Shown here piece by piece: positions 3,801-51,146 of a stretch of DNA of 64,000 nucleotides (position 1 is the stretch's first letter; each line of letters starts with the position of its first letter). Location of the stretch: contig CM069151.1 of NCBI GenBank assembly GCA_035221665.1, positions 16,244,001-16,308,000 of the forward strand. The letters run 5' to 3'. A program made the position numbers and the translations under genes. Origin of the DNA: Okamejei kenojei (lineage: Eukaryota). The notes under the pieces were generated by a model. It was given only the letters and a program-made list of their open reading frames with translations. It made no database searches and had not been told where the DNA came from.

Positions 3801-3807
3801 GAGGTTA

Positions 3808-19672: not shown

Positions 19673-19711
<39 letters not shown>

Positions 19712-28649: not shown

Positions 28650-28706
28650 CAGTTGTGGGACTGGTGGTAGATTCTGTTGTTGTCGTCGCTGTTGTTGTAG
28701 TTTTTT
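28650..28706 (-). CDS. PTS micro-exon
   Basis: 57 nt; EKTTTTATTTTESTTSPTT. Confidence 0.8.
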
Positions 28707-29078
28707 CTGTAAACACACACATACACGGCCTTTACACTCAACTTGAAGAATTACACATTGAGTAGCAAAATGAACATATATTGCACAAATTAAAAGAAAT
28801 TGTGGAATAACATTTCAACATAATCACTGCAAATATACAATCCATACTATATTCAACAGTAATATTTGTATGTGTTTCAACTCCAGCACATACTTTGGGC
28901 ATTACTGCCATTCCTTTGCATTGCATTAAAACACTATTTGAAATTCGATAACATCCCATGAGATGCTGAGGAAAATTGTGTTGCACAAGGCAACATTGAT
29001 CAACATTGTCACAACCTGCGAGTGGTACTGTATTTGAGCATATTTGCGTTAAAATGATTGATAAAATGCATTACTCAC

Positions 29079-29138
29079 CAGTTGTGGGGGTGGTGGTAGA
29101 CGTGGTTGTGGTTGGCTCAGTTGTCGTTGTTGTTTTTT
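29079..29138 (-). CDS. PTS micro-exon
   Basis: 60 nt; KTTTTTEPTTTTSTTTPTT. Confidence 0.8.
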
Positions 29139-29258
29139 CTGCAAATAAAAGCATTACATGCAACTTGAGAATAATTCAACTGAGGGCAAGCGGAAGTTGA
29201 AATTGAATGACTGAACGTAACGGCTGGTAATAACCTACTGACAGAGGTGATCACTCAC

Positions 29259-29309
29259 TTGTTGTGTAAGTGGTGGTGGTGCTTGGTGGCACCGTGGGAG
29301 TTGTTTCTT
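29259..29309 (-). CDS. PTS micro-exon
   Basis: 51 nt; EETTPTVPPSTTTTYTT. Confidence 0.78.
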
Positions 29310-29336
29310 CTGGAAAATAATGAAGGCATTACATTT

Positions 29337-29551
29337 GTTTAAGAAGGAACTGCAGATGCTGGAAAATCGAAGTTAAACAAAAATGCTGGAGAAACTCAGC
29401 GGGTGCAGCAGCATCTATGGAGCGAAGGAAATAGGCAACGTTTCGGGCCGAAACGGGTCTGACGAAGGGGTTCGGCCCGAAATATTGCCGATTTCCTTCG
29501 CTCCATAGATGCTGCTGCACCCGCTGAGTTTCTCCAGCATTTTTGTCTACC
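29337..29551. mobile_element. palindromic PLE-derived non-autonomous element with 14-bp TSD (copies at 35454-35668 and 41569-41783)
   Basis: ~75-bp inverted arms; TSD AAGGCATTACATTT; empty site at ~47665-47682. Confidence 0.8.
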
Positions 29552-29648
29552 AAGGCATTACATTTGTTTTGAATTATGTGATATAATATGTATATGTATC
29601 GGGGAGCTTGTGTTAAAAAGAGTTGCAAATGAAAATATCACCACCCAC

Positions 29649-29699
29649 CAGTTGTGGAAGTGGTTGTGGACTCAGTTGTGCTAGTTTTCGTAGATGTTT
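29649..29699 (-). CDS. PTS micro-exon (in frame only via the second AG)
   Basis: 1-nt insertion relative to paralogs: TTTAG-AAAG-AAACA; 55 nt from the first AG, 51 nt (in frame) from the second. Confidence 0.5.
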
Positions 29700-30291
29700 C
29701 TTTCTAAAGAGAAACAAATTAATGGACAATTAAATCATCCATGTTGAATCGTAGATTTTGAATGACCGACGAATTCAAACGGTAATTGGACTATTTCAAA
29801 AGAGATTGTGTAGAGTGGAATTAAACTCCTTTAATTACTTCCTATCTTGCAAAGGACTTGCAGCAAGAAATTGTACTAAAATATGGTCACAGCTGAAATG
29901 TAGGGAACACCCATAAACTACTTATTCATATCTTCATCCTATAAACTATAGAACTTAAAAATATTTCCTGAGAAATGTTGTTGCAATTATCGTTATTATT
30001 CATGGTAGTGGGAGAGATGTTTCTGTTCTTTGCTATTGGCCACAAGATATACTGCAGTCACGACACCACACTCACAAACCCAGCTCAAAATCTCAAGCTG
30101 AATAGCACAGTATTGTCAGTGCTGCACTATCTCTATCCTGCATCAGAGGACCATCAAGACTGAACCCACAGACTCTAAAATGGGATCATGAAATTGCGAA
30201 ACTTGAAGCAAGGATGGGAACATGAGTGTATGAGCTCAGCTGTGATTAAAAAAAAACCCATGAGTGTACATTGAGAAAAGTTATCACTTAC

Positions 30292-30357
30292 CAGTTGTAG
30301 GACTGGTGGTAGATTCTGTGGTGGTCGTAGCTGTTGTTGTTGTTGTTGTTGTTTCTT
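30292..30357 (-). CDS. PTS micro-exon, (ACA)7
   Basis: 66 nt; EE-T7-ATTTTESTTSPTT. Confidence 0.8.
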
Positions 30358-30608
30358 CTGTAAACAAATGCATACATGTCCTTTATATTCAACTTGAAGA
30401 AAGGCACATTTGGGAGAGTAGTAACACAATCAGCATATGTGCATAAATTAAAAGAAGTTGTGGAATAACTTCAACAAAAGCCACTGCAAATTTATAATCA
30501 TCACAGCATTCAGCAGTATCATTTGCATGTGGTTCAACTCCAGCACAAGCTGGACATACTTTGGACATTGTTTTCCATCCTTTAAAATGATTGTTCACAA
30601 GTACTCAC

Positions 30609-30953
30609 CAGTTGTGGGACTGGTTGTAGACTCAGTTGTAGTCGCGGGGACAGTTGTAGTCTCAGTTGGCTCGCAGCAAACTCTAATTCTGTAGTCACTA
30701 CAAAAGTGGCCAACATTTCCAGAGTACGTGCAGATCAATCCTATGTCTGTATTGCAGGTCACAGGATCTGGTGATACACTTAGTGGCCATTCAGGATGAT
30801 TAGCAAATTGGCACTGAATGTTAGTAATTTCATCGGAAGAAGATGGGCACAATTTAGTGCCATATGTTTCCAACAATTCATAATCATGTGGAGATCCCGT
30901 TGTTGGTGTATGTTTATTATTCCAAGGAGACCATACACCCAAACAGACTGGCA
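30609..30953 (-). CDS. CysD (WxxW) exon, copy 3
   Basis: 345 nt, within ORF 30595..30999; WSPWNNKHTPTTGSPHDYELLETYG variant. Confidence 0.93.
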
Positions 30954-32042
30954 CTGTAATGTAAAGAAAGAAAACATAAGGCAAACTTGTATAAAACAAT
31001 ACAAAGTGGGAAATATAAACATAAATATAAAAAACAAGATTTGCGAAACATGGTTGTGCATCAAAATGAATCTTCCAAATTACAGTTTAAATGAAAATGG
31101 GAACAGTAAAATGGGAATAATAACAATATGTTTGGGGAACTGTTGATTAATCTGAATTAAGATACAACCTCAAGTATCAGATAGGGAAACAGTCATTGCC
31201 AGTGCAGAACAAAACAATGGGGAAAAGCATAAAGCACAAACGTGAGATGTCACTTATCAGGCAGCTGACTGCAGCTGAGCACTAACTATTGCATGATTTT
31301 AACAGCCGGATATTCTTTCCACTTTGATGGGTTGGTCTCAGCGTGCTATTGAAGAACATTATTGGAGTAATTGCGCTGCCTCACCATATCACCTTCAAAC
31401 ATGCTACGTACTGTATATGGTGAAAATTGGTAGGCAAGAGGGAAATGGCAAAAGGGTAGCTGCTCCAGGATAATATATGATAATGGAACACGTTTGCTGT
31501 CAATTCATAAAACAGAATCAAGAGTTAAAAAAAAAAGAGTCACTGCGCCCTCCTCACCCAGTTTGCCAGGTGAGGAGGGGGCAGTGAACCCCCGGCAGGA
31601 CCAAAAACAAGACCTGACAGAAGGCAGATGAGCTCCTAGGGAGCCAACGGCCATCCACACTTCAGTAGAAGTTGCGATCACTGTTGTACATAGCATTGTA
31701 AGGCACCGTGCACAAAATACATCAGGAATAATTGATTATAGACATATATAATGGCAATCTAAATAATATTAGCACAGGCACCTAGAAAGAAGCATGAACT
31801 ATATTTTGATAGAATCAGCAGGTGCCACCCACATTAAAACCTCTGCTGATTTTAATACCTTTTAGTTAAAGAAAATTGTTTCAACTTATCTATTAAAAGA
31901 ATTTGCAACAGCTTGTACTTAATATGTTTGACAATAACCTCCTGTGAGAGTATACCACATAGGTAGAGAAGAAAACAAATGGATTTTCATTGTGGTCAGT
32001 TGAGGTTGCAAAATAATATATATTGAAAAAGCCAACACTTAC

Positions 32043-32087
32043 CTGTTGTGGAAAGAATGCTGGTTGATGTCACAGTTGATGTTTCTT
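32043..32087 (-). CDS. PTS micro-exon
   Basis: 45 nt; EETSTVTSTSILSTT. Confidence 0.8.
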
Positions 32088-32789
32088 CTGGAAAATAACA
32101 AACAAATTCAAATCACAAAGGCAACTCAATTCTTATACCGCTCAAGCAGATTTCAGACATAAGAAAAATGAAAGCAGAAATGACTGGGAGTACTTGGTAG
32201 GTCGAGCAGCATCTGTTAAGAATTAACATTTGAGACTGATTCTATTTTATAAGTACTGGAAAATTTAGAATGAAACTAAAGTTACAGTGCAGAGAAATAG
32301 GGGATGATGTGACGGGCTGGAGACCAGGAGAGATTGAGTGACCCAAATGGTGACTGAAAGATGGAAAGAAAGGAGAAGAAAGAACAAGGGGTATGTCTTG
32401 AAAAAGTGTTACTGCAACGAAACAAATAAAATCTAAAAAATAATCAGGAAAGGCAGTGAGTATCCAAGAAAAGGAAAGGGAGGGTCCACAGCAGAGTGAA
32501 GACCAAAACAGATTTACTGTAGTATATATTAATTATGAGAATTAAAATGTCTGTCATTTAAATGTTCCCTACATTTCCACTTTGTATCTCCAACACATTT
32601 CCAATAAAGTTCAGTACTCAGTGTAAGTTACAGTACCTCATCTTCCAACTGCGCATATGGCTTTAGGACCCAAGAGTAAATTTGACTTTCAGATAATCAG
32701 CTGGTTTTGTATATCACATTTGGTCTTTAATCTCTCTCCAGTATGGTGTCTCAGATTTTAGTTGTATGATTACATTTACATTACCACAC

Positions 32790-33545
32790 GGGGGCGCCAT
32801 TTGAAGGCAGCCTCTGCCTGCAGTCTGTCTGTGTTTTTTCATCTTTTTGTTATTTTTAGTCAGTTTAAAAGTATGTTTTGGAGGTATTCTTATTCTTTTG
32901 ATGTGGGGTTGGGGGGCAGGGTAAGGGGGGGGGGGAACCTTTTCTCAGTCTCTTCCTGGCGAGGATGCGACTATTCTCATCTTCGCCCACTCCTCGCGGC
33001 CTACCAACTGGATTGGCGCGGCCTTTCCTGCCGGAGACCGACCAGAGCTTCAACAGTGACGCAGCACTGAATTAACACCTCTGAGTGGAGCTGTCTGTTC
33101 CTTACTGGGGATCGTTTGATGAAGCTCCGGAGCGTTGGGCCTACTGTTTTAACATCGTAGAGCTATGGTTGCGGAGCTTCTAGCTGCGGGCAACGCTGAA
33201 GAACATCGCGGAGTCCTGGTGGTCCCTTTGCCGAGGATGCCAGTGTGAATCTCCGCCAAGCACGGCCTGTGGACGTCGGGAGCCGTGGTCTCCGGTAGGT
33301 GGCGGGTTCGGAACTCCAAGCCGCTGAGAGAGTTCTCTGTTCCGACGTCGGAGTTCCGATCATCCCGGCGAGGGCCTGAACATCGGGGCCCACGACCACG
33401 GGTAAACAAAGAGGAAGATGACTGAACTTTAATGCCTTCCCTCACAGTGGGAAACGTTGATTCTGCTGTGTGGGGATGTCTTTGTTAAATTCTATGGTGT
33501 GTTGTGTTTCTTTTTTATTCGTATGGCTGTATGGCAACCCACATT
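32790..33545 (+). mobile_element. non-autonomous retroelement (SINE-like), duplicated at ~38912-39660
   Basis: GC-rich interspersed repeat; its 3' part matches 55327-55510 in reverse and its 5' part matches 3490-3800. Confidence 0.6.
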
Positions 33546-33780
33546 TCTGGTGCTTGATACAGAAATAATTCCGAATGTTAACGAAGGAGATATATTTGAT
33601 CTGTTCTGTATCATATCACCAACCTCGAGTGAACCCTTAAGATTCTGGAGAAGGATAGAACTCTACTGCGTTGAAATTGAAACGATTGTGGCAAGCCAAT
33701 AAAGTTCAAGCTTGCAGTGCTTAAAAGGATAGTTGCGTTAAAATATCCATGAATTAATATTGAATGAAGGCATCACCCAC

Positions 33781-33851
33781 CAGTTATCTGAATTAATATG
33801 AATTAATCTGACTGGTGGTAAACTCAGTTATGGTTGATTCTGTTATTGTTT
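33781..33851 (-). pseudogene. degenerate PTS pseudo-exon
   Basis: Paralog of 39896-39966; in-frame stop. Confidence 0.6.
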
Positions 33852-34738
33852 CTTAAGAAAGTAAAAGCATTCATGACCATTCAACCATGAATGGCACAAC
33901 TGAGGCAGTAGAAAATTAACCTAATAAATGATTGTGTAACATAATTTCAGCAAATGGCTTCAAAATTATAACCATACTCCATTCAGCAATATAATGTGCT
34001 GGGTGATTTATCTGCATCACAAGTAAACTCTACTTTCAATAGAAGATTATTTTGTGAGCTGGAGTGGTAACTGCAGTTAACATACTGTTGATCACTTGGA
34101 ACTTTCAAGTGTAATGCTGAGAAATTATTGAGAAATATGAAAACAATTTAGACATGGAAAAATTATTTTCTTCTCTGCAGAACCATCACGAGTGGAGATG
34201 CAGCAGCAACAAAATAGTATAGTCCTGCACGATTTATTCTCAGTTTTCATTCCCTCGCAAGACCTCAATGCATTTCAGTATGGTGTGCCCACTTATTTAT
34301 GGCAATCACCAAAAAACCTACCATTGCACTTTTATTATGAATTACATAGCTTAATTACCCATGAGAGATGCTTTACTCCGTCTCACACAGGCTGGCTGAT
34401 CATCATATAGCCATCATTTAAAGAAGAGGATTCTAATAATTGTCTGCAGAAATAAATTTCAGGACCCTTCATTCAATATTTAGACGAATGCTTGTTATTG
34501 GAAATTGTAGCGTATAGGTCAAATTATTAGACTTTTCCTGAAGATGAGTAGAAGTTTTAATTGAACAACCAAACCCAACAGCCAGTAAGTATATACTGAA
34601 AGAGGCGATCACTCCTCTGTTATGGATGAAGGGAAATTGAAGAAAGGAAGGGAAAGGAGTGCAACTGAAAACGATGTTTATGAGCTTAGCTGTGATATAA
34701 AAACCCATGGGTTTACATTGAGAGTAGTTATCACTCAC

Positions 34739-34795
34739 CAGTTGTGGGACTGGTGGTAGATTCTGTTGTTGTCGTCGCTGTTGTTGTAGTTTTTT
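34739..34795 (-). CDS. PTS micro-exon
   Basis: 57 nt; paralog of 40854-40910. Confidence 0.8.
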
Positions 34796-35194
34796 CTGTA
34801 AACACACACATACACGGCCTTTACACTCAACTTGAAGAATTACACATTTGAGAGAGGAGTAACAAAATGAACATATATTGCACAAATTAAAAGTTGTGGA
34901 ATAATATTTCAACATAATCACTGCAAATATACAATCCATACTATATTCAGCAGTAATATTTGTATGTGTTTCAACTCCAGCACATACTTTGGGCATTACT
35001 ATCATTCCTTTGCATTGCATTAAAAGACCATTCTAGTTTGAATCTCAAGACTTTGAAATTCGATAACATCCCATGAGCTGCTGAGGTAAAATTGTGTTGC
35101 ACAAGGCAACATTGATCAACATTGTCACAACCTGCGAGTGGTACTGTATTTGAGCATATTTTTGTTAAAATGATTGATAAAATGCATTACTCAC

Positions 35195-35254
35195 CAGTTG
35201 TGGGGGTGGTGGTAGACGTGGTTGTAGTTGGCTCGGTTGTCGTTGTTGTTTTTT
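35195..35254 (-). CDS. PTS micro-exon
   Basis: 60 nt; paralog of 41310-41369. Confidence 0.8.
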
Positions 35255-35375
35255 CTGCAAATAAAAGCATTACATGCAACTTGAAGAATAATTCAACTGA
35301 GGGCAAGCGTAAGTTGAAATTGAATGACTGAACGTAACGGCTGGTAATAACCTACTGACAGAGGTGATCACTCAC

Positions 35376-35426
35376 CTGTTGTGTAAGTGGTGGTGGTGCT
35401 TGGTGGCACCGTGGGAGTTGTTTCTT
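35376..35426 (-). CDS. PTS micro-exon
   Basis: 51 nt; paralog of 41491-41541. Confidence 0.8.
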
Positions 35427-35765
35427 CTGGAAAATAATAAAGGCATTACATTTGTTTAAGAAGGAACTGCAGATGCTGGAAAATCGAAGTTAAACAAAAA
35501 TGCTGGAGAAACTCAGCGGGTGCAGCAGCATCTATGGAGCGAAGGAAATAGGCAACGTTTCGGGCCGAAACGGGTCTGACGAAGGGGTTCGGCCCGAAAT
35601 ATTGCCGATTTCCTTCGCTCCATAGATGCTGCTGCACCCGCTGAGTTTCTCCAGCATTTTTGTCTACCAAGGCATTACATTTGTTTTGAATTATGTGATA
35701 TAATATGTATATGTATCGGGGAGCTTGTGTTAAAAAGAGTTGCAAATGAAAATATCACCACCCAC

Positions 35766-35819
35766 CAGTTGTGGAAGTGGTTGTGGACTCAGTTGTGCTA
35801 GTTTTCGTAGATGTTTCTT
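35766..35819 (-). CDS. PTS micro-exon
   Basis: 54 nt; paralog of 41881-41934. Confidence 0.75.
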
Positions 35820-36406
35820 CTAAAGAGAAACAAATTAATGGACAATTAAATCATCCATGTTGAATCGTAGATTTTGAATGACCGACGAATTCAAACGGTA
35901 ATTGGACTATTTCAAAAGAGATTGTGTAGAGTGGAATTAAACTCCTTTAATTACTTCCTATCTTGCAAAGGACTTGCAGCAAGAAATTGTACTAAAATAT
36001 GGTCACAGCTGAAATGTAGGGAACACCCATAAACTACTTATTCATATCTTCATCCTATAAACTATAGAACTTAAAAATATTTCCTGAGAAATGTTGTTGC
36101 AATTATCGTTATTATTCATGGTAGTGGAGATATGTTTCTGTTCTTTGCTATTGGCCACAAGATATACTGCAGTCACGACACCACACTCACAAACCCAGCT
36201 CAAAATCTCAAGCTGAATAGCACAGTATTGTCAGTGCTGCACTATCTCTATCCTGCATCAGAGGACCATCAAGACTGAACCCACAGACTCTAAAATGGGA
36301 TCATGAAATTGCGAAACTTGAAGCAAGGATGGGAACATGAGTGTATGAGCTCAGCTGTGATTAAAAAAAAACCCATGAGTGTACATTGAGAGAAGTTATC
36401 ACTTAC

Positions 36407-36478
36407 CAGTTGTAGGACTGGTGGTAGATTCTGTGGTGGTCGTAGCTGTTGTTGTTGTTGTTGTTGTTGTTGTTTCTT
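36407..36478 (-). CDS. PTS micro-exon, (ACA)9
   Basis: 72 nt; EE-T9-ATTTTESTTSPTT. Confidence 0.8.
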
Positions 36479-36729
36479 CTGTAAACAAATGCATACATGT
36501 CCTTTATATTCAACTTGAAGAAAGGCACATTTGGGAGAGTAGTAACACAATCAGCATATGTGCATAAATTAAAAGAAGTTGTGGAATAACTTCAACAAAA
36601 GCCACTGCAAATTTATAATCATCACAGCATTCAGCAGTATCATTTGCATGTGGTTCAACTCCAGCACAAGCTGGACATACTTTGGACATTGTTTTCCATC
36701 CTTTAAAATGATTGTTCACAAGTACTCAC

Positions 36730-37074
36730 CAGTTGTGGGACTGGTTGTAGACTCAGTTGTAGTCGTGGGGACAGTTGTAGTCTCAGTTGGCTCGCAGCAA
36801 ACTCTAATTCTGTAGTCACTACAAAAGTGGCCAACATTTCCAGAGTACGTGCAGATCAATCCTATGTCTGTATTGCAGGTCACAGGATCTGGTGATACAC
36901 TTAGTGGCCATTCAGGATGATTAGCAAATTGGCACTGAATGTTAGTAATTTCATCGGAAGAAGATGGGCACAATTTAGTGCCATATGGTTTCAATAATTC
37001 ATAATCATTTGGAGATCCCGTTGTTGGTGTATTTGTATTATTCCAAGGAGACCATACACCCAAACAGACTGGCA
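36730..37074 (-). CDS. CysD (WxxW) exon, copy 2
   Basis: 345 nt, within ORF 36716..37120. Confidence 0.93.
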
Positions 37075-38164
37075 CTGTAATGTAAAGAAAGAAAACATAA
37101 GGCAAACTTGTATAAAACAATACAAAGTGGGAAATATAAACATAAATATAAAAAACAAGATTTGCGAAACATGGTTGTGCATCAAAATGAATCTTCCAAA
37201 TTACAGTTTAAATGAAAATGGGAACAGTAAAATGGGAATAATAACAATATGTTTGGGGAAACTGTTGATTAATCTGAATTAAGATACAACCTCAAGTATC
37301 AGATAGGGAAACAGTCATTGCCAGTGCAGAACAGAACAATGGGGAAAAGCATAAAGCACAAACGTGAGATGTCACTTATCAGGCAGCTGACTGCAGCTGA
37401 GCACTAACTATTGCATGATTTTAACAGCCGGATATTCTTTCCACTTTGATGGGTTGGTCTCAGCGTGCTATTGAAGAACATTATTGGAGTAATTGCGCTG
37501 CCTCACCATATCACCTTCAAACATGCTACGTACTGTATATGGTGAAAATTGGTAGGCAAGAGGGAAATGGCAAAAGGGTAGCTGCTCCAGGATAATATAT
37601 GATAATGGAACACGTTTGCTGTCAATTCATAAAACAGAATCAAGAGTTAAAAAAAAGGAGTCACTGCCCCCTCCTCACCCAGTTTGCCAGGTGAGGAGGG
37701 GGCAGTGAACCCCCGGCAGGACCAAAAACAAGACCTGACAGAAGGCAGATGAGCTCCTAGGGAGCCAACGGCCATCCACACTTCAGTAGAAGTTGCGATC
37801 ACTGTTGTACATAGCATTGTAAGGCACCGTGCACAAAATACATCAGGAATAATTGATTATAGACATATATAATGGCAATCTAAATAATATTAGCACAGGC
37901 ACCTAGAAAGAAGCATGAACTATATTTTGATAGAATCAGCAGGTGCCACCCACATTAAAACCTCTGCTGATTTTAATACCTTTTAGTTAAAGAAAATTGT
38001 TTCAACTTATCTATTAAAAGAATTTGCAACAGCTTGTACTTAATATGTTTGACAATAACCTCCTGTGAGAGTATACCACATAGGTAGAGAAGAAAACAAA
38101 TGGATTTTCATTGTGGTCAGTTGAGGTTGCAAAATAAATATATATTGAAAAAGCCAACACTTAC

Positions 38165-38209
38165 CTGTTGTGGAAAGAATGCTGGTTGATGTCACAGTTG
38201 ATGTTTCTT
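38165..38209 (-). CDS. PTS micro-exon
   Basis: 45 nt; EETSTVTSTSILSTT. Confidence 0.8.
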
Positions 38210-39895
38210 CTGGAAAATAACAAACAAATTCAAATCACAAAGGCAACTCAATTCTTATACCGCTCAAGCAGATTTCAGACATAAGAAAAATGAAAGCAGA
38301 AATGACTGGGAGTACTTGGTAGGTCGAGCAGCATCTGTTAAGAATTAACATTTGAGACTGATTCTATTTTATAAGTACTGGAAAATTTAGAATGAAACTA
38401 AATTTACAGTGCAGAGAAATAGGGGATGATGTGACGGGCTGGAGACCAGGAGAGATTGAGTGACCCAAATGGTGACTGAAAGATGGAAAGAAAGGAGAAG
38501 AAAGAACAAGGGGTATGTCTGGAAAAAGTGTTACTGCAGCGAAACAAATAAAATCTAAAAAATAATCAGGAAAGGCAGTGAGTATCCAAGAAAAGGAAAG
38601 GGAGGGTCCACAGCAGAGTGGAGACCAAAACAGATTTACTGTAGTATATATTAATTATGAGAATTAAAATGTCTGTCATTTAAATGTTCCCTACATTTCC
38701 ACTTTGTATCTGCAACACATTTCCAATAAAGTTCAGTACTCAGTGTAAGTTACAGTACCTCATCTTCCAACTGCGCATATGGCTTTAGGACCCAAGAGTA
38801 AATTTGACTTTCAGATAATCAGCTGGTTTTGTATATCACATTTGGTCTTTAATCTCTCTCCAGTATGGTGTCTCAGATTTCAGTTGTATGATTACATTTA
38901 CATTACCACACGGGGGCGCCATTTGAAGGCAGCCTCTGCCTGCAGTCTGTCTGTGTTTTTTCATCTTTTTGTTATTTTTAGTCAGTTTAAAAGTATGTTT
39001 TGGAGGTATTCTTATTCTTTTTATGTGGGGTTGTGGGGCAGGGTAAGGGGGGGGGGGAACCTTTTCTCAGTCTCTTCCTGGCGAGGATGCGACTATTCTC
39101 ATCTTCGCCCACTCCTCGCGGCCTACCAACTGGATTGGCGCGGCCTTTCCTGCCGGAGACCGACCAGAGCTTCAACAGTGACTCAGCACTGAATTAACAC
39201 CTCTGAGTGGAGCTGTCTGTTCCTTACTGTGGATCGTTTGATGAAGCTCCGGAGCGTTGGGCCTACTGTTTTAACATCGTAGAGCTATGGTTGTGGAGCT
39301 TCTAGCCGCGGGCAACGCTGAAGAACATCGCGGAGCCCTGGTGGTCCCTTTGCCGAGGATGCCAGTGTGAATCTCCGCCAAGCACGGCCTGTGGACGTCG
39401 GGAGCCGTGGTCGGTGGCGGGTTCGGAACTCCAAGCCGCTGAGAGAGTTCTCCGTTCCGACGTCGGAGTTCCGATCATCCCGGCGAGGGCCTGAACATCG
39501 GGGCCCACGACTACGGGTAAACAAAGAGGAAGATGACTGAACTTTAATGCCTTCCCTCACAGTGGGAAACGTTGATTCTGCTGTGTGGGGATGTCTTTGT
39601 TAAATTCTATGGTGTGTTGTGTTTCTTTTTTATTCGTATGGCTGTATGGCAACCCACATTTCTGGTGCTTGATACAGAAATAATTCCGAATGTTAACGAA
39701 GGAGATATATTTGATCTGTTCTGTATCATATCACCAACCTCGAGTGAACCCTTAAGATTCTGGAGAAGGATAGAACTCTACTGCGTTGAAATTGAAACGA
39801 TTGTGGCAAGCCAATAAAGTTCAAGCTTGCAGTGCTTAAAAGGATAGTTGCGTTAAAATATCCATGAATTAATATTGAATGAAGGCATCACCCAC

Positions 39896-39966
39896 CAGTT
39901 ATCTGAATTAATATGAATTAATCTGACTGGTGGTAAACTCAGTTATGGTTGATTCTGTTATTGTTT
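39896..39966 (-). pseudogene. degenerate PTS pseudo-exon
   Basis: ETITESTITEFTTS followed by an AT-rich insertion giving an in-frame TAA; 71 nt; AG and GT retained. Confidence 0.6.
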
Positions 39967-40853
39967 CTTAAGAAAGTAAAAGCATTCATGACCATTCAAC
40001 CATGAATGGCACAACTGAGGCAGTAGAAAATTAACCTAATAAATGATTGTGTAACATAATTTCAGCAAATGGCTTCAAAATTATAACCAAACTCCATTCA
40101 GCAAGATAATGTGCTGGGTGATTTATCTGCATCACAAGTAAACTCTACTTTCAATAGAAGATTATTTTGTGAGCTGGAGTGGTAACTGCAGTTAACATAC
40201 TGTTGATCACTTGGAACTTTCAAGTGTAATGCTGAGAAATTATTGAGAAATATGAAAACAATTTAGACATGGAAAAATTATTTTCTTCTCTGCAGAACCA
40301 TCATGAGTGGAGATGCAGCAGCAACAAAATAGTATAGTCCTGCACGATTTATTCTCAGTTTTCATTCCCTCGCAAGACCTCAATGCATTTCAGTATGGTG
40401 TGCCCACTTATTTATGGCAATCACCAAAAAACCTACCATTGCACTTTTATTATGAATTACATAGCTTAATTACCCATGAGAGATGCTTTACTCCGTCTCA
40501 CATAGGCTGGCTGATCATCATATAGCCATCATTTAAAGAAGAGGATTCTAATAATTGTCTGCAGAAATAAATTTCAGGACCCTTCATTCAATATTTAGAC
40601 CAATGCTTGTTATTGGAAATTGTAGCGGATAGGTCAAATTATTAGACTTTTACTGAAGATGAGTAGAAGTTTGAATTGAACAACCAAACCCAACAGCCAG
40701 TAAGTATATACTGACAGAGGCGATCACTCCTCTGTTATGGATGAAGGGAAATTGAAGAAAGGAAGGGAAAGGAGTGCAACTGAAAACGATGTTTATGAGC
40801 TTAGCTGTGATATAAAAACCCATGGGTTTACATTGAGAGTAGTTATCACTCAC

Positions 40854-40910
40854 CAGTTGTGGGACTGGTGGTAGATTCTGTTGTTGTCGTCGCTGTTGTT
40901 GTAGTTTTTT
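40854..40910 (-). CDS. PTS micro-exon
   Basis: 57 nt; EKTTTTATTTTESTTSPTT. Confidence 0.8.
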
Positions 40911-41309
40911 CTGTAAACACACACATACACGGCCTTTACACTCAACTTGAAGAATTACACATTTGAGAGAGGAGTAACAAAATGAACATATATTGCACAA
41001 ATTAAAAGTTGTGGAATAATATTTCAACATAATCACTGCAAATATACAATCCATACTATATTCAGCAGTAATATATGTATGTGTTTCAACTCCAGCACAT
41101 ACTTTGGGCATTACTATCATTCCTTTGCATTGCATTAAAAGACCATTCTAGTTTGAATCTCAAGACTTTGAAATTCGATAACATCCCATGAGCTGCTGAG
41201 GTAAAATTGTGTTGCACAAGGCAACATTGATCAACATTGTCACAACCTGCGAGTGGTACTGTATTTGAGCATATTTTTGTTAAAATGATTGATAAAATGC
41301 ATTACTCAC

Positions 41310-41369
41310 CAGTTGTGGGGGTGGTGGTAGACGTGGTTGTGGTTGGCTCGGTTGTCGTTGTTGTTTTTT
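41310..41369 (-). CDS. PTS micro-exon
   Basis: 60 nt; EKTTTTTEPTTTTSTTTPTT. Confidence 0.8.
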
Positions 41370-41490
41370 CTGCAAATAAAAGCATTACATGCAACTTGAA
41401 GAATAATTCAACTGAGGGCAAGCGGAAGTTGAAATTGAATGACTGAACGTAACGGCTGGTAATAACCTACTGACAGAGGTGATCACTCAC

Positions 41491-41541
41491 CTGTTGTGTA
41501 AGTGGTGGTGGTGCTTGGTGGCACCGTGGGAGTTGTTTCTT
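41491..41541 (-). CDS. PTS micro-exon
   Basis: 51 nt; EETTPTVPPSTTTTYTT. Confidence 0.8.
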
Positions 41542-41880
41542 CTGGAAAATAATAAAGGCATTACATTTGTTTAAGAAGGAACTGCAGATGCTGGAAAATC
41601 GAAGTTAAACAAAAATGCTGGAGAAACTCAGCGGGTGCAGCAGCATCTATGGAGCGAAGGAAATAGGCAACGTTTCGGGCCGAAACGGGTCTGACGAAGG
41701 GGTTCGGCCCGAAATATTGCCGATTTCCTTCGCTCCATAGATGCTGCTGCACCCGCTGAGTTTCTCCAGCATTTTTGTCTACCAAGGCATTACATTTGTT
41801 TTGAATTATGTGATATAATATGTATATGTATCGGGGAGCTTGTGTTAAAAAGAGTTGCAAATGAAAATATCACCACCCAC

Positions 41881-41934
41881 CAGTTGTGGAAGTGGTTGTG
41901 GACTCAGTTGTGCTAGTTTTCGTAGATGTTTCTT
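41881..41934 (-). CDS. PTS micro-exon
   Basis: 54 nt; EETSTKTSTTESTTTSTT. Confidence 0.75.
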
Positions 41935-42495
41935 CTAAAGAGAAACAAATTCATGGACAATTAAATCATCCATGTTGAATCGTAGATTTTGAATGACCGA
42001 CGAATTCAAACGGTAATTGGACTATTTCAAAAGAGATTGTGTAGAGTGGAATTAAACTCCTTTAATTACTTCCTATCTTGCAAAAATATGGTCACAGCTG
42101 AAATGTAGGGAACACCCATAAACTACTTATTCATATCTTCATCCTATAAACTATAGAACTTAAAAATATTTCCTGAGAAATGTTGTTGCAATTATCGTTA
42201 TTATTCATGGTAGTGGAGAGATGTTTCTGTTCTTTGCTATTGGCCACAAGATATACTGCAGTCACGACACCACACTCACAAACCCAGCTCAAAATCTCAA
42301 GCTGAATAGCACAGTATTGTCAGTGCTGCACTATCTCTATCCTGCATCAGAGGACCATCAAGACTGAACCCACAGACTCTAAAATGGGATCATGAAATTG
42401 CGAAACTTGAAGCAAGGATGGGAACATGAGTGTATGAGCTCAGCTGTGATTAAAAAAAAACCCATGAGTGTACATTGAGAGAAGTTATCACTTAC

Positions 42496-42564
42496 CAGTT
42501 GTAGGACTGGTGGTAGATTCTGTGGTGGTCGTAGCTGTTGTTGTTGTTGTTGTTGTTGTTTCTT
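42496..42564 (-). CDS. PTS micro-exon, (ACA)8
   Basis: 69 nt; EE-T8-ATTTTESTTSPTT. Confidence 0.8.
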
Positions 42565-42813
42565 CTGTAAACAAATGCATACATGTCCTTTATATTCAAC
42601 TTGAAGAAAGGCACATTTGGGAGAGTAGTAACACAATCAGCATATGTGCATAAATTAAAAGAAGTTGTGGAATAACTTCAACAAAAGCCACTGCAAATTT
42701 ATAATCATCACAGCATTCAGCAGTATCATTTGCATGTGGTTCAACTCCAGCACAAGTTGGACATACTTTGGACATTGTTTTCCATCCTTTAAAATGATTG
42801 TTCACGTACTCAC

Positions 42814-43158
42814 CAGTTGTGGGACTGGTTGTAGACTCAGTTGTAGTCGTGGGGACAGTTGTAGTCTCAGTTGGCTCGCAGCAAACTCTAATTCTGTAGT
42901 CACTACAAAAGTGGCCAACATTTCCAGAGTACGTGCAGATCAATCCTATGTCTGTATTGCAGGTCACACGATCTGGTGATACACTTAGTGGCCATTCAGG
43001 ATGATTAGCAAATTGGCACTGAATGTTAGTAATTTCATCGGAAGAAGATGGGCACAATTTAGTGCCATATGGTTTCAATAATTCATAATCATTTGGAGAT
43101 CCCGTTGTTGGTGTATTTGTATTATTCCAAGGAGACCATACACCCAAACAGACTGGCA
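42814..43158 (-). CDS. CysD (WxxW) exon, copy 1
   Basis: 345 nt, phase 1-1; VPVCLGVWSPWNN...DYE...C...IQC...VTC...GLIC...CSDYRIRVCC plus Thr tail. Confidence 0.93.
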
Positions 43159-44245
43159 CTGTAATGTAAAGAAAGAAAACATAAGGCAAACTTGTATAAA
43201 ACAATACAAAGTGGGAAATATAAACATAAATATAAAAAACAAGATTTGCGAAACATGGTTGTGCATCAAAATGAATCTTCCAAATTACAGTTTAAATGAA
43301 AATGGGAACAGTAAAATGGGAATAATAACAATATGTTTGGGGAACTGTTGATTAATCTGAATTAAGATACAACCTCAAGTATCAGATAGGGAAACAGTCA
43401 TTGCCAGTGCAGAACAGAACAATGGGGAAAAGCATAAAGCACAAACGTGAGATGTCACTTATCAGGCAGCTGACTGCAGCTGAGCACTAACTATTGCATG
43501 ATTTTAACAGCCGGATATTCTTTCCACTTTGATGGGTTGGTCTCAGCGTGCTATTGAAGAACATTATTGGAGTAATTGCGCTGCCTCACCATATCACCTT
43601 CAAACATGCTACGTACTGTATATGGTGAAAATTGGTAGGCAAGAGGGAAATGGCAAAAGGGTAGCTGCTCCAGGATAATATATGATAATGGAACACGTTT
43701 GCTGTCAATTCATAAAACAGAATCAAGAGTTTAAAAAAAAGAGTCACTGCGCCCTCCTCACCCAGTTTGCCAGGTGAGGAGGGGGCAGTGAACCCCCGGC
43801 AGGACCAAAAACAAGACCTGACAGAAGGCAGATGAGCTCCTAGGGAGCCAACGGCCATCCACAATTCAATAGAAGTTGCGATCACTGTTGTACATAGCAT
43901 TGTAAGGCACCGTGCACAAAATACATCAGGAATAATTGATTATAGACATATATAATGGCAATCTAAATAATATTAGCACAGGCACCTAGCAAGAAGCATG
44001 AACTATATTTTGATAGAATCAGCAGGTGCCACCCACATTAAAACCTCTGCTGATTTTAATACCTTTTAGTTAAAGAAAATTGTTTCAACTTATCTATTAA
44101 AAGAATTTGCAAGCTTGTACTTAATATGTTTGACAATAACCTCCTGTGAGAGTATACCAAATAGGTAGAGAAGAAAACAAATGGATTTTCATTGTGATCA
44201 GTTGAGGTTTCAAAATAAATATATATTGAAAAAGCCAACACTTAC

Positions 44246-44290
44246 CTGTTGTGGTTGGAATGCTGGTTGATGTCACAGTTGATGTTTCTT
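44246..44290 (-). CDS. PTS micro-exon
   Basis: 45 nt; EETSTVTSTSIPTTT; CAG/GTAAGT. Confidence 0.8.
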
Positions 44291-44609
44291 CTGGAAAATA
44301 TACAAACAAATTCAAATCACAAAGTCAACTCAATTCTTATTTTCATATATACGAAAAAATGAAAGTAGAAACTACTGGAAGTACTTGGTAGGTCAAGCAG
44401 CATCTGTTAAGAATTAACATTTGAGACTGATTATATTTTATAAGTACTGGAACATTTAGAATGAAACAAAATGTGTGGTGCAGAGAAATAGGGGAGGATG
44501 TAACGACCAGGAGAGATTGAGTGAGCCAAATAGTGACTGAAAGATGGAAGGAAAGGAGAAGAAAGAACAAGGGGTATGTCTGGAAAAAGTGTTACTGCAA
44601 AGAAACAAA

Positions 44610-45249
44610 TCTATCTATATATACCACTAAATCTCTCATCTTGTTTATTTGTTTGTTTTGATGTGTGCACGTGCCTGAAATACAGCCAAAACTGTACACG
44701 ATAGCGCTACAATTATTGGCCCACCTTACTCACCATTGTCCTGTGATGTGCAGTATCAATTTCCCTTCAGATTGATGTGATATTTTACAAGTTATTGACA
44801 TTTAAAACTTAAAAAAAATTTAAACCCACACTTGCTGTCATTACTTGACTGGTGTCACAAATGGCACACAACGGGTCCTCAGCCATGCCTGAGCAGCTGG
44901 GGCCTTTGACAATTTTCAGATCGGCACTTTTATTTTTTGCGTGCACTTTCCTAGCCTCACAACAGGGACCCAGCGGCTCCATGGGCAAGTTTCCTATTTT
45001 ACAAACACCTCCATCAGGCCTCTATTTCTTTATTAACTTTAAGTGAATTTCTGCCGTCAACGGCACAACTTTGACCACCGCTGTCACGCCCGCGCACTTG
45101 GCCAGGTATTCACGCTTACGCAGTTGGGGAAAGCTTACCGGGCCTGCCGCCATTTTGAGATCGCCATTTTGACTTGCGTCACAATGGGAACAGGTTAGTA
45201 GTAATTTAGCGTTGGGTATTTGGGCCCAACGGGTTCGTGCTTGGTCTAG
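44610..45249 (+). mobile_element. non-autonomous Helitron
   Basis: 5'-TC...CTAG-3', inserted between A and T without TSD; subterminal hairpin gggcccaacgggttc; empty sites aaacaaa|taaaatct at ~32427 and ~38548. Confidence 0.88.
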
Positions 45250-45941: not shown

Positions 45942-45995
45942 CAGTTGTGGGAGTGGTGGTAGATTCTGTTGTGGTTGTGGATGTCGTTGTTTCTT
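45942..45995 (-). CDS. PTS micro-exon with GC donor
   Basis: 54 nt; EETTTSTTTTESTTTPTT; donor GCAAGT. Confidence 0.6.
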
Positions 45996-46383: not shown

Positions 46384-46438
46384 CAGTAGTGGGGCTGGTG
46401 GTAGACTTAGTTGTTGTCGTGGGGACAGTTGTAAAAAA
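46384..46438 (-). pseudogene. relic exon: truncated tail of a CysD-type exon
   Basis: TTVPTTTTKSTTSPTT plus a GT donor matches the 3' end of the CysD exons, but the CysD part is absent; the nearest AG gives 55 nt (out of frame). Confidence 0.55.
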
Positions 46439-46662: not shown

Positions 46663-46722
46663 CAGTTGTGGGACTGGTGGTAGATTCTGTTGTGGTCCTC
46701 ACTGTTGTTGTTGTTGTTTCTT
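46663..46722 (-). CDS. PTS micro-exon
   Basis: 60 nt; EETTTTTVRTTTESTTSPTT; CAG/GTGAGT. Confidence 0.8.
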
Positions 46723-46974
46723 CTGTAAACAAATGCATACACGGCCATTACATTCAACTTAAAGAATGGCGCGTTTGAGAGAGTGGTAACAAAATCAGCA
46801 TATAATGCATAAACTTAAAATAGATTGTGCAAAATAATGTCAACAAATCATTACAAATTTACAACCGACACTACATTCAGTGGTAATATTTGTATGTGTT
46901 TCAACTTTGACTTCTGGACATACTTTGGGCATTACTGTCCTTCCTTTGTGGTGTATCAAAGCACCATTCTAGTG

Positions 46975-47255: not shown

Positions 47256-47421
47256 TTGAATATCAAGTCTGAAACGCGATAACATCCCATGAACTACTGA
47301 CGAGAAATTGTGGCGCACGAGCAAGGCAAATAAACGTCAGTTACAACACGAGTGGTACTATATTTAAGCATTGTTGTGTTAAAATGCCTGTTAACAAGTA
47401 CTTTCAAAAAGCATCTCTCAC

Positions 47422-47481
47422 CAGTTGTGGGACTGGTGGTAGACTCAGTAGTGGTTGTCTCTGTTGTCGTTGTTGTTTCTT
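47422..47481 (-). CDS. PTS micro-exon
   Basis: 60 nt; EETTTTTETTTTESTTSPTT; CAG/GTGAGA. Confidence 0.8.
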
Positions 47482-47602
47482 CTGCAAATAAAACCATTAC
47501 ATTCAACTTGAAGAATGATTGAATTGAGGGGAAGTGGAAGCTGAAATTGAATGACTGAACCTAATGGCCGGTATTACCCTACTGACAGAGGCGATCCCTC
47601 AC

Positions 47603-47650
47603 CTGTTGTGGAGGTGGTGGTGCTTGGTGTTACCATGGTAGTTGTTTCTT
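47603..47650 (-). CDS. PTS micro-exon
   Basis: 48 nt; EETTTMVTPSTTTSTT; CAG/GTGAGG. Confidence 0.78.
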
Positions 47651-47783
47651 CTGGAAAATAATAAAGGCATTCAATTTGTTTTGAACAAAAATTATATGTA
47701 TAGATATTTTTTTTGCATATGTTCTCTTGGAGAGCTTATCTTAAAAATATTTGCAAATGATCACTGGAAAAATAACCACCCAC

Positions 47784-47837
47784 CAGTTGTGGAAGTGGTT
47801 GTGGACTCGGTCGTGCTGGTGGTTGTAGATGTTTCTT
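47784..47837 (-). CDS. PTS micro-exon
   Basis: 54 nt; EETSTTTSTTESTTTSTT; TAG/GTGGGT. Confidence 0.75.
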
Positions 47838-48044
47838 CTAAAGAGCAACAAATTCATGGACAATTAATTAATCAGTCTTGAATAGTAGATTTTGAATGAC
47901 CGGCAAGAACATATTACCCAATTTAAAATCGATTTGGCAAAGTAGAAATCAGTCTCTTTCATTCCTTAACATCTTTTAGCCAAGAAATTTGGCTAATACA
48001 TGTATTCATGTTCATATATTTGTACTAATAAATGTATTTGGCTA

Positions 48045-48225
48045 ATAGATGTATTCCAGAGAGAGTTGGATATAGCTCTTAGAGCTAACGGAATCAAGGG
48101 ATATGGGGAGGAAGCAGGAACGGGGTTCTGATTCTGGATGATCAGCCATGATCATAGTGAATGGCTTTGCTGGCTCGAAGGGCTGAATGGCCCACTCCTG
48201 CAACTATTTTCTATGTTTCTATGAA
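48045..48225 (+). mobile_element. CR1 3' end
   Basis: gatcagccatgatcat..gctggctcgaaggg..(tttctatg)n tail. Confidence 0.75.
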
Positions 48226-49336
48226 ATTGTTCTAAAATATGTTCATTGTTGATATGTAGGGAACATCCTAAACAATTTCATCTGCATAAAGATTGCCAAA
48301 TTGGCTCATTTTGTTAGAAATACTGAATCGATCATCGTCATTAGTCCAAAGATGGAGACATTTTACCATTCTTTTACAAATTTTCTGACAGAATTTTGTA
48401 CTTCAGAACACTCACAAACCAACTCTAAAAATTAAGGCAGGATAACACAGTTTGGGCAATGCTGCACCATCCCTATCTTGGATCAAACATGCAACGTATC
48501 TAGATTAAAATCCACATGCGTCTGATGTGAGATATCCTACAGCAAACCCAAGTGGTAGATTCCCAGATTAAAAGTGGGTGTATTACTCCTATCTGAGTAC
48601 TTCACCATATTCACTATTAGATTACTGCTTTTAAAATGGCACAGGTACTGCATGATCTGAAGCCGTTTGAGTCATTATCCCTTTACAGTTCTTTGATAGT
48701 CACTCAAATCAACCTCCATGTTCATTTCAATATACGTATACGTATATCTTGGCCTGGGTAACCTTCAGGACACATCATCAACATTTCTCTCGGCAACATT
48801 TATATTACATTTCTTTGTACAAGGAACAATATTAAATAGAAGCATTGTTATCAGTTTAAAAGGAATTTGTGAAAAGGGTAGGGAGCTGCAATATTTAACA
48901 ATATCAACATTATTTAACAATAGAGGGAAACTGGCAGAAAATAACTGTGGAAAACAGAGTTGAGCAGAGATGTCTACAAGATTCTTCATTAAAAGGTGTA
49001 CTAGAATGGAAAAGATGTGAAGGGGCAATGGTTATTATGATCATCCTTCCATTATATAAATATTCAGATGTAACCCAAGGCCTTGGATGCAAGAAATTGG
49101 GCATTGTAGATTTGACCTTCACGTCAGCTTGATAAGTCTATCACAATATTGAGGGAGGCTCGAATTAAAGATTTACTGACACTGTGGTGACACATTAACT
49201 CTCTAGCAGATGTAGTGGGAGGAAATGAGAAGGAAGAGCAGGGATCAGAATGGTGCTATTATGTAGGGTAAGGGAAGGTTGAGATGAAGGGTTGACAGTC
49301 CAGTAAAGCAGCTGAGAAAGGATCATTGTGATGGGA

Positions 49337-49367
<31 letters not shown>

Positions 49368-51053
49368 CAGATTAAAGTGCCAGGGTATTAGTGGAGACCA
49401 AGGACATTGGGTAGTACATTAAATTCAGCAGGTTTTAGGTGTTTATCTGACTTTGTAATTTCATTTTAACAGGTAAACTTGAATCTGCTCATAAAATATA
49501 TCTTTTCAACAGCACATTCCAAATTATTGCAAATTTGTGTTTAATGTCATTTATATTTTAATTTTGCCTTTGGTTCTTTTGCCAATTATCCTGGGACCCC
49601 TTTTTAGTATTTATCTGGTAGATCATTGGCCACAATGTATACAAAAGGCATGCATCACAAATCATTTCATGAACTTTACATTGCAGAAAGCCAGTTTGAT
49701 CTCACATCTGTTTTAGTTCATATTTTCATTGAGATCCTGAAGTCATAGAATCATGCAGTTCTCCCAAAATAGCAAAATGGTAGATTTATTGATTAAGGAC
49801 AATGTCATGGCATTAGTCTGAGATGATGTTACTGACAGTTTAAAAAACCCAAAATTAAAGTAAAAATTAAAAAAATATTAAGAAACATTTGGATAGGTAC
49901 ATAGATTGGATAGGTTTAGAAGGAAATTGGCAAATGCAGAGGTGGGATTAGCGTGGATGGGGCTGGGCATTGGCTGATTTCTGCCACTCAGAAATGTAGG
50001 TCCACACTAAAATAGTAACAACACAAAATCTGAAGTAAAAACTGATGAATATTTAAAACTAACATTTACATTTCTCTGAATAAGCTTTCTGAAAAATGTG
50101 TCTTACTATCCCCCCCCCTTTTTTTTTTAACAGTTTTAGAATTGCTAAATATAATTAAACAGACATTATATTCAGTTGTCAATTTTACTCAAAAAGGACA
50201 TAGAACAATACAGCACAGGAACGGGTCCATCAACTCACTATCTCTGTGGCGAACATGATGCCGAGACCAATCCTTATCTGCCAGTACATAATCCATACCC
50301 TCCATTTCCTGCATATCCAGGCGTCTATCCAAAAGTCTCTTAAACACCACAATTGTATCTGCCTCCATCACTACTCTCAGCAGTGGGCCAGGCACTCAAC
50401 ATCCACCACACACACATCCTCTCTAAACGTTGCCCAGCCACAAAATGGAGAATTGTGCAGGCAGAGATTAGTTACAGGCAGAGGAGATTAGTTGAACTGA
50501 GCATCGTGTGATCCAAAAGGCCTGTTATTGTGCTGTACTGTTCTATGTGAGGATGTTCCTGATATACATTTATTATTCTTATCAACATTTCGCCAAGCTG
50601 GCAACATGAAACCCTGACCTTATGTGCTTTTCACAAGCGAGTTTAAAACATAAGCCAAAGCTCAGACTTTATCCATACAAATTGCCTCTTACACCTACAG
50701 TTGCTTTGGGCTTGTTCCTATGAGGCAGGAGCTGTGAAAGTGAATGGAGATGAGACCTATTTGACTGAATCATATATTTGCCTTGTGGAGCCAAGAGAGA
50801 CTCTCTTTTGCCCTTTTTACACAATGTTTGTCATCTCTTTGAGACCCAGGTGCAGTATGCAGATTAAAGTTACTGATCGTCAACATCATGAAACGTGTTG
50901 GAAAATGATAACTTGCTTATGAATCCCATTTATAATTATTATGTCCAAAAGTACAGACATACCAATGTCCAGTTTCACCTCTGATCTTTCGAAATCTGTT
51001 CTTACCAAATTGTAAATATTACATGTCATAACCTGTAACTAGTATCACCTTAC

Positions 51054-51146
51054 CTGGACTAGTGATTGGTGTAGAAATTGTTGAAGTTGATGTAAGTGGA
51101 GTTGTGGTCAACAGTGTTGTAGATGGAACAGTTGTGGTCTTTATTC
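51054..51146 (-). CDS. mucin first PTS exon
   Basis: 93 nt, phase 1-1; RIKTTTVPSTTLLTTTPLTSTSTISTPITSP. Confidence 0.85.

Follow-up and report, generated by a model that had tools for sequence, protein, structure and literature searches.

The window analysed here, a 64,000-nucleotide (nt) stretch of the Okamejei kenojei genome (assembly GCA_035221665.1, contig CM069151.1, positions 16,244,001 to 16,308,000), carries on its minus strand the 3' part of one large gene that we infer to encode a gel-forming mucin, with secretion, O-glycosylation and polymer formation predicted from its family. The gene holds 27 cassette exons within an open frame that runs from VWD3 through a Pro/Thr/Ser-rich (PTS) region with CysD domains to VWD4 and a cystine-knot-like (CK) end. 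As a preliminary description of the region had proposed, the cassettes, which span 51146-51054 down to 28706-28650, comprise 24 Thr-rich PTS exons, 45-93 nt in length, and three 345-nt exons for CysD, all of them phase 1 in and phase 1 out, and sum to 2409 nt or 803 codons. The composition of these codons, CysD included, is that of a PTS region (T 41.6%, S 11.3%, P 8.3%). Together with nine upstream and 13 downstream exons, the cassettes give a single frame of 49 exons and 1902 codons, with the stop at 6792.

The domain content agrees with the description of a mucin domain with CysD. The CysD exons, of which two of the three copies were scanned, match Pfam PF13330 at 52.9 and 52.6 bits (cut-off 22.4, E 6e-14), contain the WxxW motif and end in a PTS tail of 19 residues. 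VWD and C8 profiles match exons of the window on the flanks, and the order VWD-C8-TIL precedes the PTS region. Only D3 lies inside the window; D1 and D2 would lie beyond it, as inferred from the 90%-identical Rhinoraja longicauda protein P0001. At the C-terminal end, the last two exons are rich in Cys and share 62-74% identity with the ends of orthologs, the last exon alone gives no Pfam match, and a protein search with the VWD4 exon as query returned no match.

The preliminary description also held that any subset of cassettes can be skipped in frame. Indeed, the frame stays intact (1099 codons) after removal of all 27 cassettes, and a stop is impossible in any junction codon. One exception is exon D of unit 3 (29703-29649), which measures 55 nt from its TAG acceptor because of a 1-nt insertion in an A run, shifts the frame and brings the first stop at codon 1160 of 1902; it is in frame (51 nt) only from a weak AAG acceptor 4 nt downstream. 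This insertion is either a real variant or a sequencing error. Two other exons are imperfect, namely 45995-45942, which has a GC donor, and 29309-29259, whose donor is weakened by a G>A change at -1. Only 5 of 21 flanking exons are symmetric, which indicates that the symmetry of the cassettes is not the background of the gene. The features of the gene, in the direction of transcription, are as follows.

53237..60873, minus strand: nine upstream exons (TIL/E, VWD3, C8, TIL), 90% identical over 426 amino acids to P0001, the rest of the N-terminus lying past the window; the last of them, 53268-53237, ends in phase 1.
51054..51146, minus strand: P0, the first and a unique PTS exon, 93 nt, phase 1-1, with a homolog at the same place in P0001.
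47784..47837, minus strand: PTS exon D', 54 nt.
47603..47650, minus strand: PTS exon C', 48 nt.
47422..47481, minus strand: PTS exon B', 60 nt, its donor boundary met by a relative's contig (loose end at 47422).
46663..46722, minus strand: PTS exon E', 60 nt, which is matched best by the exon that record 29 of a relative's sequencing run (X5, see below) joins to CysD.
46384..46438, minus strand: dead remnant of 55 nt, not symmetric, consisting of the 3' tail of a CysD exon and its donor, the trace of a deletion of about one unit.
45942..45995, minus strand: PTS exon A'gc, 54 nt, with the GC donor.
38550..44610, minus strand: tandem unit 1, 6.1 kb, with exons F 44290-44246 (45 nt), CysD 43158-42814 (345), E 42564-42496 (69), D 41934-41881 (54), C 41541-41491 (51), B 41369-41310 (60) and A 40910-40854 (57).
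42814..43158, minus strand: CysD exon 1 within unit 1, with WxxW, eight Cys and a PTS tail of 19 amino acids.
39876..39999, minus strand: decayed cassette exon in the long intron, with a second copy at 33884-33761 (profile matches, E 0.05 to 3e-6).
About 40742, 34627 and 28538, minus strand: decayed C-type donors.
32428..38549, minus strand: tandem unit 2, with exons F 38209-38165, CysD 37074-36730, E 36478-36407 (72 nt), D 35819-35766, C 35426-35376, B 35254-35195 and A 34795-34739.
36730..37074, minus strand: CysD exon 2 within unit 2, one substitution from CysD 1.
28469..32427, minus strand: tandem unit 3, without most of the long intron, with exons F 32087-32043, CysD 30953-30609, E 30357-30292 (66 nt), D 29703/29699-29649, C 29309-29259, B 29138-29079 and A 28706-28650.
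30609..30953, minus strand: CysD exon 3 within unit 3, 7-8 substitutions from CysD 1 and 2 (6-7 non-synonymous, one synonymous).
27861..27913, minus strand: transition exon of 53 nt, phase 1-0, in which the beginning of the C-terminal region follows an E-type cassette acceptor (64 nt, 95% alike) in a fusion.
6792..27047, minus strand: twelve downstream exons (VWC-like, VWD4, C8 with a repeat insert, TIL, VWC-like, cystine-knot-like end), with the stop at 6792.

Self-comparison of the window shows a 6.1-kb period over 28469-44610, whose three units are 96-98% alike by BLAST and hold 21 of the 27 cassettes, each unit having six PTS exons and a single CysD in the order F, CysD, E, D, C, B, A. Introns differ between units at only 14 of 2756, 17 of 2754 and 23 of 2724 sites (0.5-0.8%), so the triplication is young. 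Each unit has private substitutions and larger insertions or deletions (14, 21 and 26 nt), and several indels of unit 3 are single bases in runs. Alleles in which one unit differs from the other two are distributed in patches, the pattern expected of crossover or conversion, and the route of unequal crossover put forward in the preliminary description thus finds support in the array itself. The CysD domains recur at a spacing of 227 and 228 residues and are separated by 133-134 PTS residues, and the single CysD at the PTS end in reedfish, stingrays, P0026 and P0039 is likely the old state, multiplied here by unit duplication.

Splice-site profiles were built from 11 distinct cassettes, leaving out the 93-nt exon P0. 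They match the acceptors and donors of all PTS exons except P0, and also the CysD donors, the transition exon, the decayed exons, the three decayed donors and the CysD tail at 46438-46384. This shared splice-site family, the dead copies and the chimeric transition exon show, at the level of sequence, that the cassettes descend from one exon-intron module, born and lost over time. In a coding gene, tandem copying is survivable only for symmetric exons of 3n length. Given this requirement and the common descent of the cassettes, the 27-fold symmetry is one ancestral property multiplied, and not evidence of selection for skipping.

Several other features of the array and its surroundings were observed. 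The length of exon E varies between units by whole ACA codons (69, 72 and 66 nt), a microsatellite that adds a third, fine level of length change. The D-C intron of each unit (29377-29549, 35494-35666, 41606-41778) contains a near-palindromic pair of short interspersed nuclear elements (SINEs) of about 173 nt, 90% self-complementary, which splits the region upstream of the cassette-type acceptor and could form a pre-mRNA hairpin beside exon C. At the 5' edge of unit 1, about 630 nt (45239-44611) are unrelated and GC-richer; the similarity to the inter-unit intron breaks there and resumes at 45250-45604, so that this segment is likely an insertion marking the array boundary. An inverted repeat of 550-580 nt, 82% alike (48908-49454 / 58835-58257), encloses P0 together with the final five exons of the D3 region. 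In the C-terminal C8 exon (19001-18466, minus strand, 536 nt), a coding tandem repeat of 24/48 nt gives Gly/Ser/Arg/Pro runs; at this position stingray orthologs have a different Gly/Ser/Lys/Glu repeat, and sharks have none. Just downstream of the mucin stop, at 3772-5178 on the plus strand, lies a 469-codon reverse transcriptase open reading frame of a long interspersed nuclear element (RVT_1, E 9e-31).

We place the gene, from sequence comparison, in the Muc19/spiggin lineage as its skate (batoid) member, and not in the MUC2/5 group. The upstream part is 90% identical to proteins of Rhinoraja longicauda and then 79-83% to those of sawfish, electric ray and stingray, and the downstream exons best match stingray proteins, including their Gly/Ser insert. 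All trees are quick trees and contain no MUC6 row. Those of the D3 region group the window gene and all elasmobranch homologs with mammalian MUC19, away from MUC2/5; when D1 and D2 domains serve as the root, support for the clade is 99 and the MUC2/5 grouping is rejected by the approximately unbiased test (p-AU 0.034). The elasmobranch D1 and D2 domains also pair with MUC19 (support 89-93 and 98-99). With 32 of 84 representatives added, among which amphioxus is the nearest outgroup, the clade reaches an SH-aLRT (approximate likelihood ratio test) support of 100 and the MUC2/5 grouping a p-AU of 0.0006. Its members are mammalian MUC19, bichir, reedfish, paddlefish, bowfin and teleost Muc19-like proteins and a chimaera protein. 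Among tetrapods, identity is 54-55% to MUC19 and 42-49% to MUC2/5. Membership in MUC2/MUC5AC/MUC5B, the comparators chosen in the preliminary description, is thus rejected by both tests, and the 27 exons stand in place of one large central exon.

The gene does not have the architecture of mammalian MUC19 either, which lacks a fourth VWD and CysD: VWD4 and three CysD are present in the window gene. The bichir and reedfish mucin-19-like proteins carry Pfam CysD, and the reedfish one also has four VWD, so it is very probable that the ancestor of the Muc19 lineage had CysD and VWD4 and that mammals lost both. In PMC4948705, CysD is assigned to MUC2/MUC5 types, a fourth VWD to some spiggins, and three Muc19 paralogs to the chimaera, although its online domain diagrams may already show CysD in the Muc19 lineage; the text of a supplement figure names LRRK2/SLC2A13 as neighbours of MUC19. 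Several Muc19-lineage paralogs per species are found on contigs of one size (e.g. five in Mustelus and four in Pristis), which suggests that these genes are clustered in tandem in elasmobranchs.

The closest solved structures to the CysD domains are those of MUC5AC, MUC5B and MUC2 CysD (E 1e-9 to 5e-5), MUC5AC and MUC5B being best at E 1e-9. Counted from the Cys before WxxW, there are eight Cys in the window CysD and in 17 of 17 elasmobranch copies, which differs from the ten-cysteine, five-disulfide CysD described for MUC2 (PMC3195396). The same source describes non-covalent dimers of MUC2 CysD and proposes that they control pore size, and added poly-CysD is reported to stiffen mucus (PMC6861317); the transfer of this cross-linking to the eight-Cys skate CysD is an assumption. 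Relative to the other two copies, CysD exon 3 has five clustered changed residues (13-29) with two His gained, and its substitutions exceed the intron rate (7 of 345 vs 17 of 2754, p=0.013). Three of its alleles, two of the clustered changes and a silent one, recur in relatives' contigs, and since these are common to a relative, an old unconverted tract explains the excess as well as positive selection does.

CysD number and sequence both vary between relatives. There is one CysD in the stingray orthologs P0024 and P0029, three in the window gene and the truncated Rhinoraja models, and up to 11 in a basking shark protein. Three near-identical Rhinoraja models (P0001, P0005, P0006), which lie on equal-sized contigs and all break off within the array, show 5-10 differences among 1186 N-terminal residues and differ by 0.2-0.7% in D3, yet their CysD differ by 9.5-15.9%. 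Each of these CysD copies is a mosaic of the others, a pattern that suggests conversion among the paralogs. Between the window gene and Rhinoraja, the difference is 9% in D3 and 35-39% in CysD. In a closest-copy test, p was below 0.003 in six of six skate-skate comparisons. Of the 14 remaining pairs, 11 were not significant and three had p 0.01-0.02 (one window-stingray, one stingray-stingray and one teleost pair). As PTS exons too diverge faster than D3 in a relative (run X5, see below), relaxed constraint or conversion among paralogs may explain this fast divergence in skates as an alternative to diversifying selection.

Splice signals and contigs from relatives bear on how the cassettes are used. 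The median donor score is 5.9 in cassettes and 3.9 in flanking exons (13 and 20 exons that are not independent, scored with a rough matrix), and a NAGNAG motif stands at the start of 16 of the 27 cassettes. Four of seven sequencing runs of relatives were compared, over 38600-56400 only, which contains one of the three units; none of the seven is recorded as RNA, a gap in the records that carries no weight as evidence. Contigs of SINEs dominate runs X1-X3. Run X5 comes from another organism, about 3% different in the D3-region exons and 7-11% in CysD, with PTS exons that are also faster than D3; its depth falls in 9 of 30 bins, all exon-bearing. Its RNA-like contigs stop at 41310, 41369, 42814, 43158 and 46663, and at 40854 and 47422 they have loose ends whose letters resemble the beginning of a following cassette; record 10 of X2 also begins at 42814. 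Five boundaries of unit 1 (43158, 42814, 41369, 41310 and 40854) thus coincide with contig ends, which shows that cassette exon boundaries are used in splicing in a relative. The preliminary description would have been refuted if most micro-exons lacked junctions, and the exon types covered by these contigs do have them.

Record 25 of X5 (246 nt) lies exactly on exon B of unit 1, and its length fits D-C-B-A plus eight letters of the next exon. Bin depths fit as well for exon A (58.0) and for B with C (57.8), and are lower for D (45.4). The record would represent C-B-A, and probably D, in genomic order, this order following from lengths since only the B piece is listed. Record 28 agrees with a join of F to CysD (depth 37.3 vs 37.4). 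Among the 15 joints listed out of 146, none lies at cassette exons, so no skip joint can be read from them. Exons P0, D', C', A'gc and E of unit 1 have no X5 cover, which is not evidence of absence (the repeat of the last lies outside the comparison). In X2 and X5, CysD has about ten times the contig depth of the D3 exons, a difference left unused because contig depth cannot rank gene parts.

NCBI RefSeq isoform models, which rest on RNA junction alignments, were compared with isoform X1 in eight genes of seven species, all paralogs and none a strict ortholog of the window gene. The comparison used listed members (at most 15 per cluster), after four non-isoform members were dropped; three of 11 isoform sets (S. 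canicula gene a, Mustelus and S. torazame) were left out, X1 being absent from the listed members. Elasmobranch paralogs have up to about 49 isoforms per gene. Among the listed isoforms, 71 of 72 differ from X1 only centrally and 63 by one in-frame deletion, mostly of 13-20 residues or multiples, which shows that the cassette layout is general in sharks and rays; bichirs have it too. Isoforms differing by one residue are also present.

We consider it probable that the cassettes are mostly included in order, with occasional skips, and that length and CysD number are set mainly by genomic copy number. The stronger cassette donors, the genomic order of record 25, the differing CysD counts in relatives, and listed isoforms that mostly lack only 1-4 cassettes from proteins of 2100-2950 amino acids were counted for this, as was chicken MUC2, for which PMC3549977 describes one in-frame splice variant and no change on infection. 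Several points weigh against it. The polypyrimidine tract scores slightly lower in cassettes than in flanking exons (11 vs 12, p=0.08), and Xenopus FIM-C.1 is described as highly polymorphic via alternative splicing (PMC7177656). In addition, record 29 of X5 joins an E'/A-type exon straight to CysD, bypassing the A'gc and F of the window order, and 30 of the 63 single-deletion isoforms create a junction absent from the longest form, with at least six new 14-mers and in some cases 12-13; CysD is lost in 10 of 72, three with a clearly new junction. Apart from the tracts, these points, the many isoforms and the skipping of any subset without a stop favour the idea of the preliminary description that splicing is a major, possibly regulated source of diversity, giving many mucin lengths and zero to three CysD tuned by tissue or state. 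We regard this as a serious but unlikely alternative. The join in record 29 could be an exon skip, but records 28 and 29 do not agree in their CysD letters (13 vs 15 differences, with the variant at 43117 only in the 37.3-depth contig), indicating two CysD copies with different neighbours, and another genomic order explains the join equally. Furthermore, 26 of the 63 deletions have no new 14-mer and could be mis-mapping (seven have 1-5). In a reedfish control, the length differences of 13 of 13 isoforms are multiples of 16 residues (zero in two, which swap one copy for another), and none has a new 14-mer, the pattern expected of mis-mapping among identical exons. The closest full-length orthologs, P0024 and P0029, have one model each, which together with the strong donors also speaks against it. 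Frame-safe skipping, one ambiguous join and the paralog isoforms are what stands of the proposal that alternative splicing varies length, and combinatorial splicing of this gene is a hypothesis.

The reedfish isoforms and the ordered record 25 would also suit strictly constitutive splicing, in which all database isoforms are repeat-mapping artefacts and all variation is genomic. This is hard to reconcile with the new junctions in paralogs, which include whole-CysD deletions, with the NAGNAG motifs and one-residue isoforms, and with exon D of unit 3, which must be skipped or use its weak acceptor if the insertion is real, and we find it improbable. Still less credible is the view that the array is an artefact of assembly, either over-expanded or the collapsed form of a longer one, or that this copy is decaying. 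The high similarity of the units, the single-base indels of unit 3, including the frameshift in its exon D, and the break of all Rhinoraja models inside the array fit this explanation, but unit-specific substitutions and larger indels are not expected from error, the three alleles of CysD exon 3 recur in a relative's contigs, and the 49 exons otherwise keep an open frame. More units of identical sequence may nevertheless have been collapsed.

Under mostly ordered inclusion, the skate mucin would keep the old plan of the Muc19/spiggin lineage, D1-D2-D3 / PTS with CysD / D4 / CK. As the sequence shows, its middle grew as a single small phase 1-1 exon was copied in tandem together with its flanking intron, only symmetric exons being copied or lost without a frame break. 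The latest step was the multiplication of the 6.1-kb block into three units, placing a CysD at each repeat of the spacing given above. Most mRNA would contain the exons in order, with occasional skips and NAGNAG variants of one residue. Brush length and CysD number would change mainly by unequal crossover or conversion between alleles, paralogs and species, splicing being a minor second source. The T/S-rich stretches would carry O-glycans, and CysD would provide non-covalent cross-links, by analogy with MUC2 as described in PMC3195396.

Comparison with known systems is consistent with this placement. The D3 region groups with the Muc19/spiggin lineage at full support, tandem expansion of paralogs is described for spiggin (PMC2180178, PMC4989455), and some spiggins have a fourth VWD like the window gene (PMC4948705). 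The mammalian MUC19 proteins P0114 and P0126, which are partial, show no CysD or VWD4 match, in line with PMC4948705, whereas three CysD and VWD4 are present here. The preliminary statement that MUC19 uses many small exons was not confirmed, since the central exon of human MUC19 is described as uninterrupted (PMC13345508), in contrast to the PTS exons of 45-93 nt in the skate. Among elasmobranch homologs, annotated as mucin-2/5AC/6/19-like, Rhinoraja XP_078275996.1 has the same cassette types and the order A-F-CysD, and CysD is only 61-68% identical where D3 is 80-90%. The stingray proteins P0024 (Hemitrygon) and P0029 (Hypanus) share the Gly/Ser insert in the C-terminal C8, but have their one CysD at the end of a long PTS, whereas skate genes have CysD within the repeating unit.

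Human MUC2, MUC5AC and MUC5B resemble the skate gene in a PTS region interrupted by CysD, in VWD4 and in CK, but belong to another lineage and have one large central exon and ten-cysteine CysD; in MUC5AC and MUC5B, CysD number varies between alleles by genomic duplication within that exon (PMC10983947). Chicken MUC2, also of the other lineage, has its PTS (exons 32-44) and four CysD spread over many exons, as described in PMC3549977. Chicken Muc13 has one exon per repeat and led in 2006 to the same proposal of length control by splicing (PMC1552070), but it is a membrane mucin without CysD. Xenopus FIM-C.1 is a skin gel mucin with trefoil modules instead of CysD, in which splicing is shown, whereas in the skate it is a hypothesis. 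Cassette splicing also occurs in Xenopus FIM-B.1, and Lang et al. 2007 reportedly described many-exon PTS regions in frog mucins. Exon-per-repeat mucins and the splicing hypothesis are thus already published for chicken Muc13. We found no publication on elasmobranch mucin exon structure, on CysD in Muc19 or on fast skate CysD divergence, in a literature search that was thin on subscription journals.

The usual statement that CysD marks MUC2/MUC5-type mucins is revised by these results, as shark, ray and bichir proteins of the Muc19 lineage carry CysD, and many database names of elasmobranch mucins (mucin-2/5AC/6-like) are misleading. The idea of splice-tuned mucin length has had no good test since 2006; copy-specific single-nucleotide polymorphisms and seven distinguishable exon types make this gene one, since they would let long reads count its isoforms without ambiguity. 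A more far-reaching and doubtful reading is that the shark and ray Muc19-lineage family expanded with CysD on its own skippable exon, included by regulated splicing within one animal and under diversifying selection in skates, the latter suggested by the 10-16% amino-acid difference between Rhinoraja paralogs with near-identical D3. If true, mesh size and binding of mucus would be tuned by splicing and by a hypervariable module, unlike the fixed single-exon human MUC2/5, and the skippable, fast-evolving CysD exon would offer a natural series relating cross-linker number to gel mesh.

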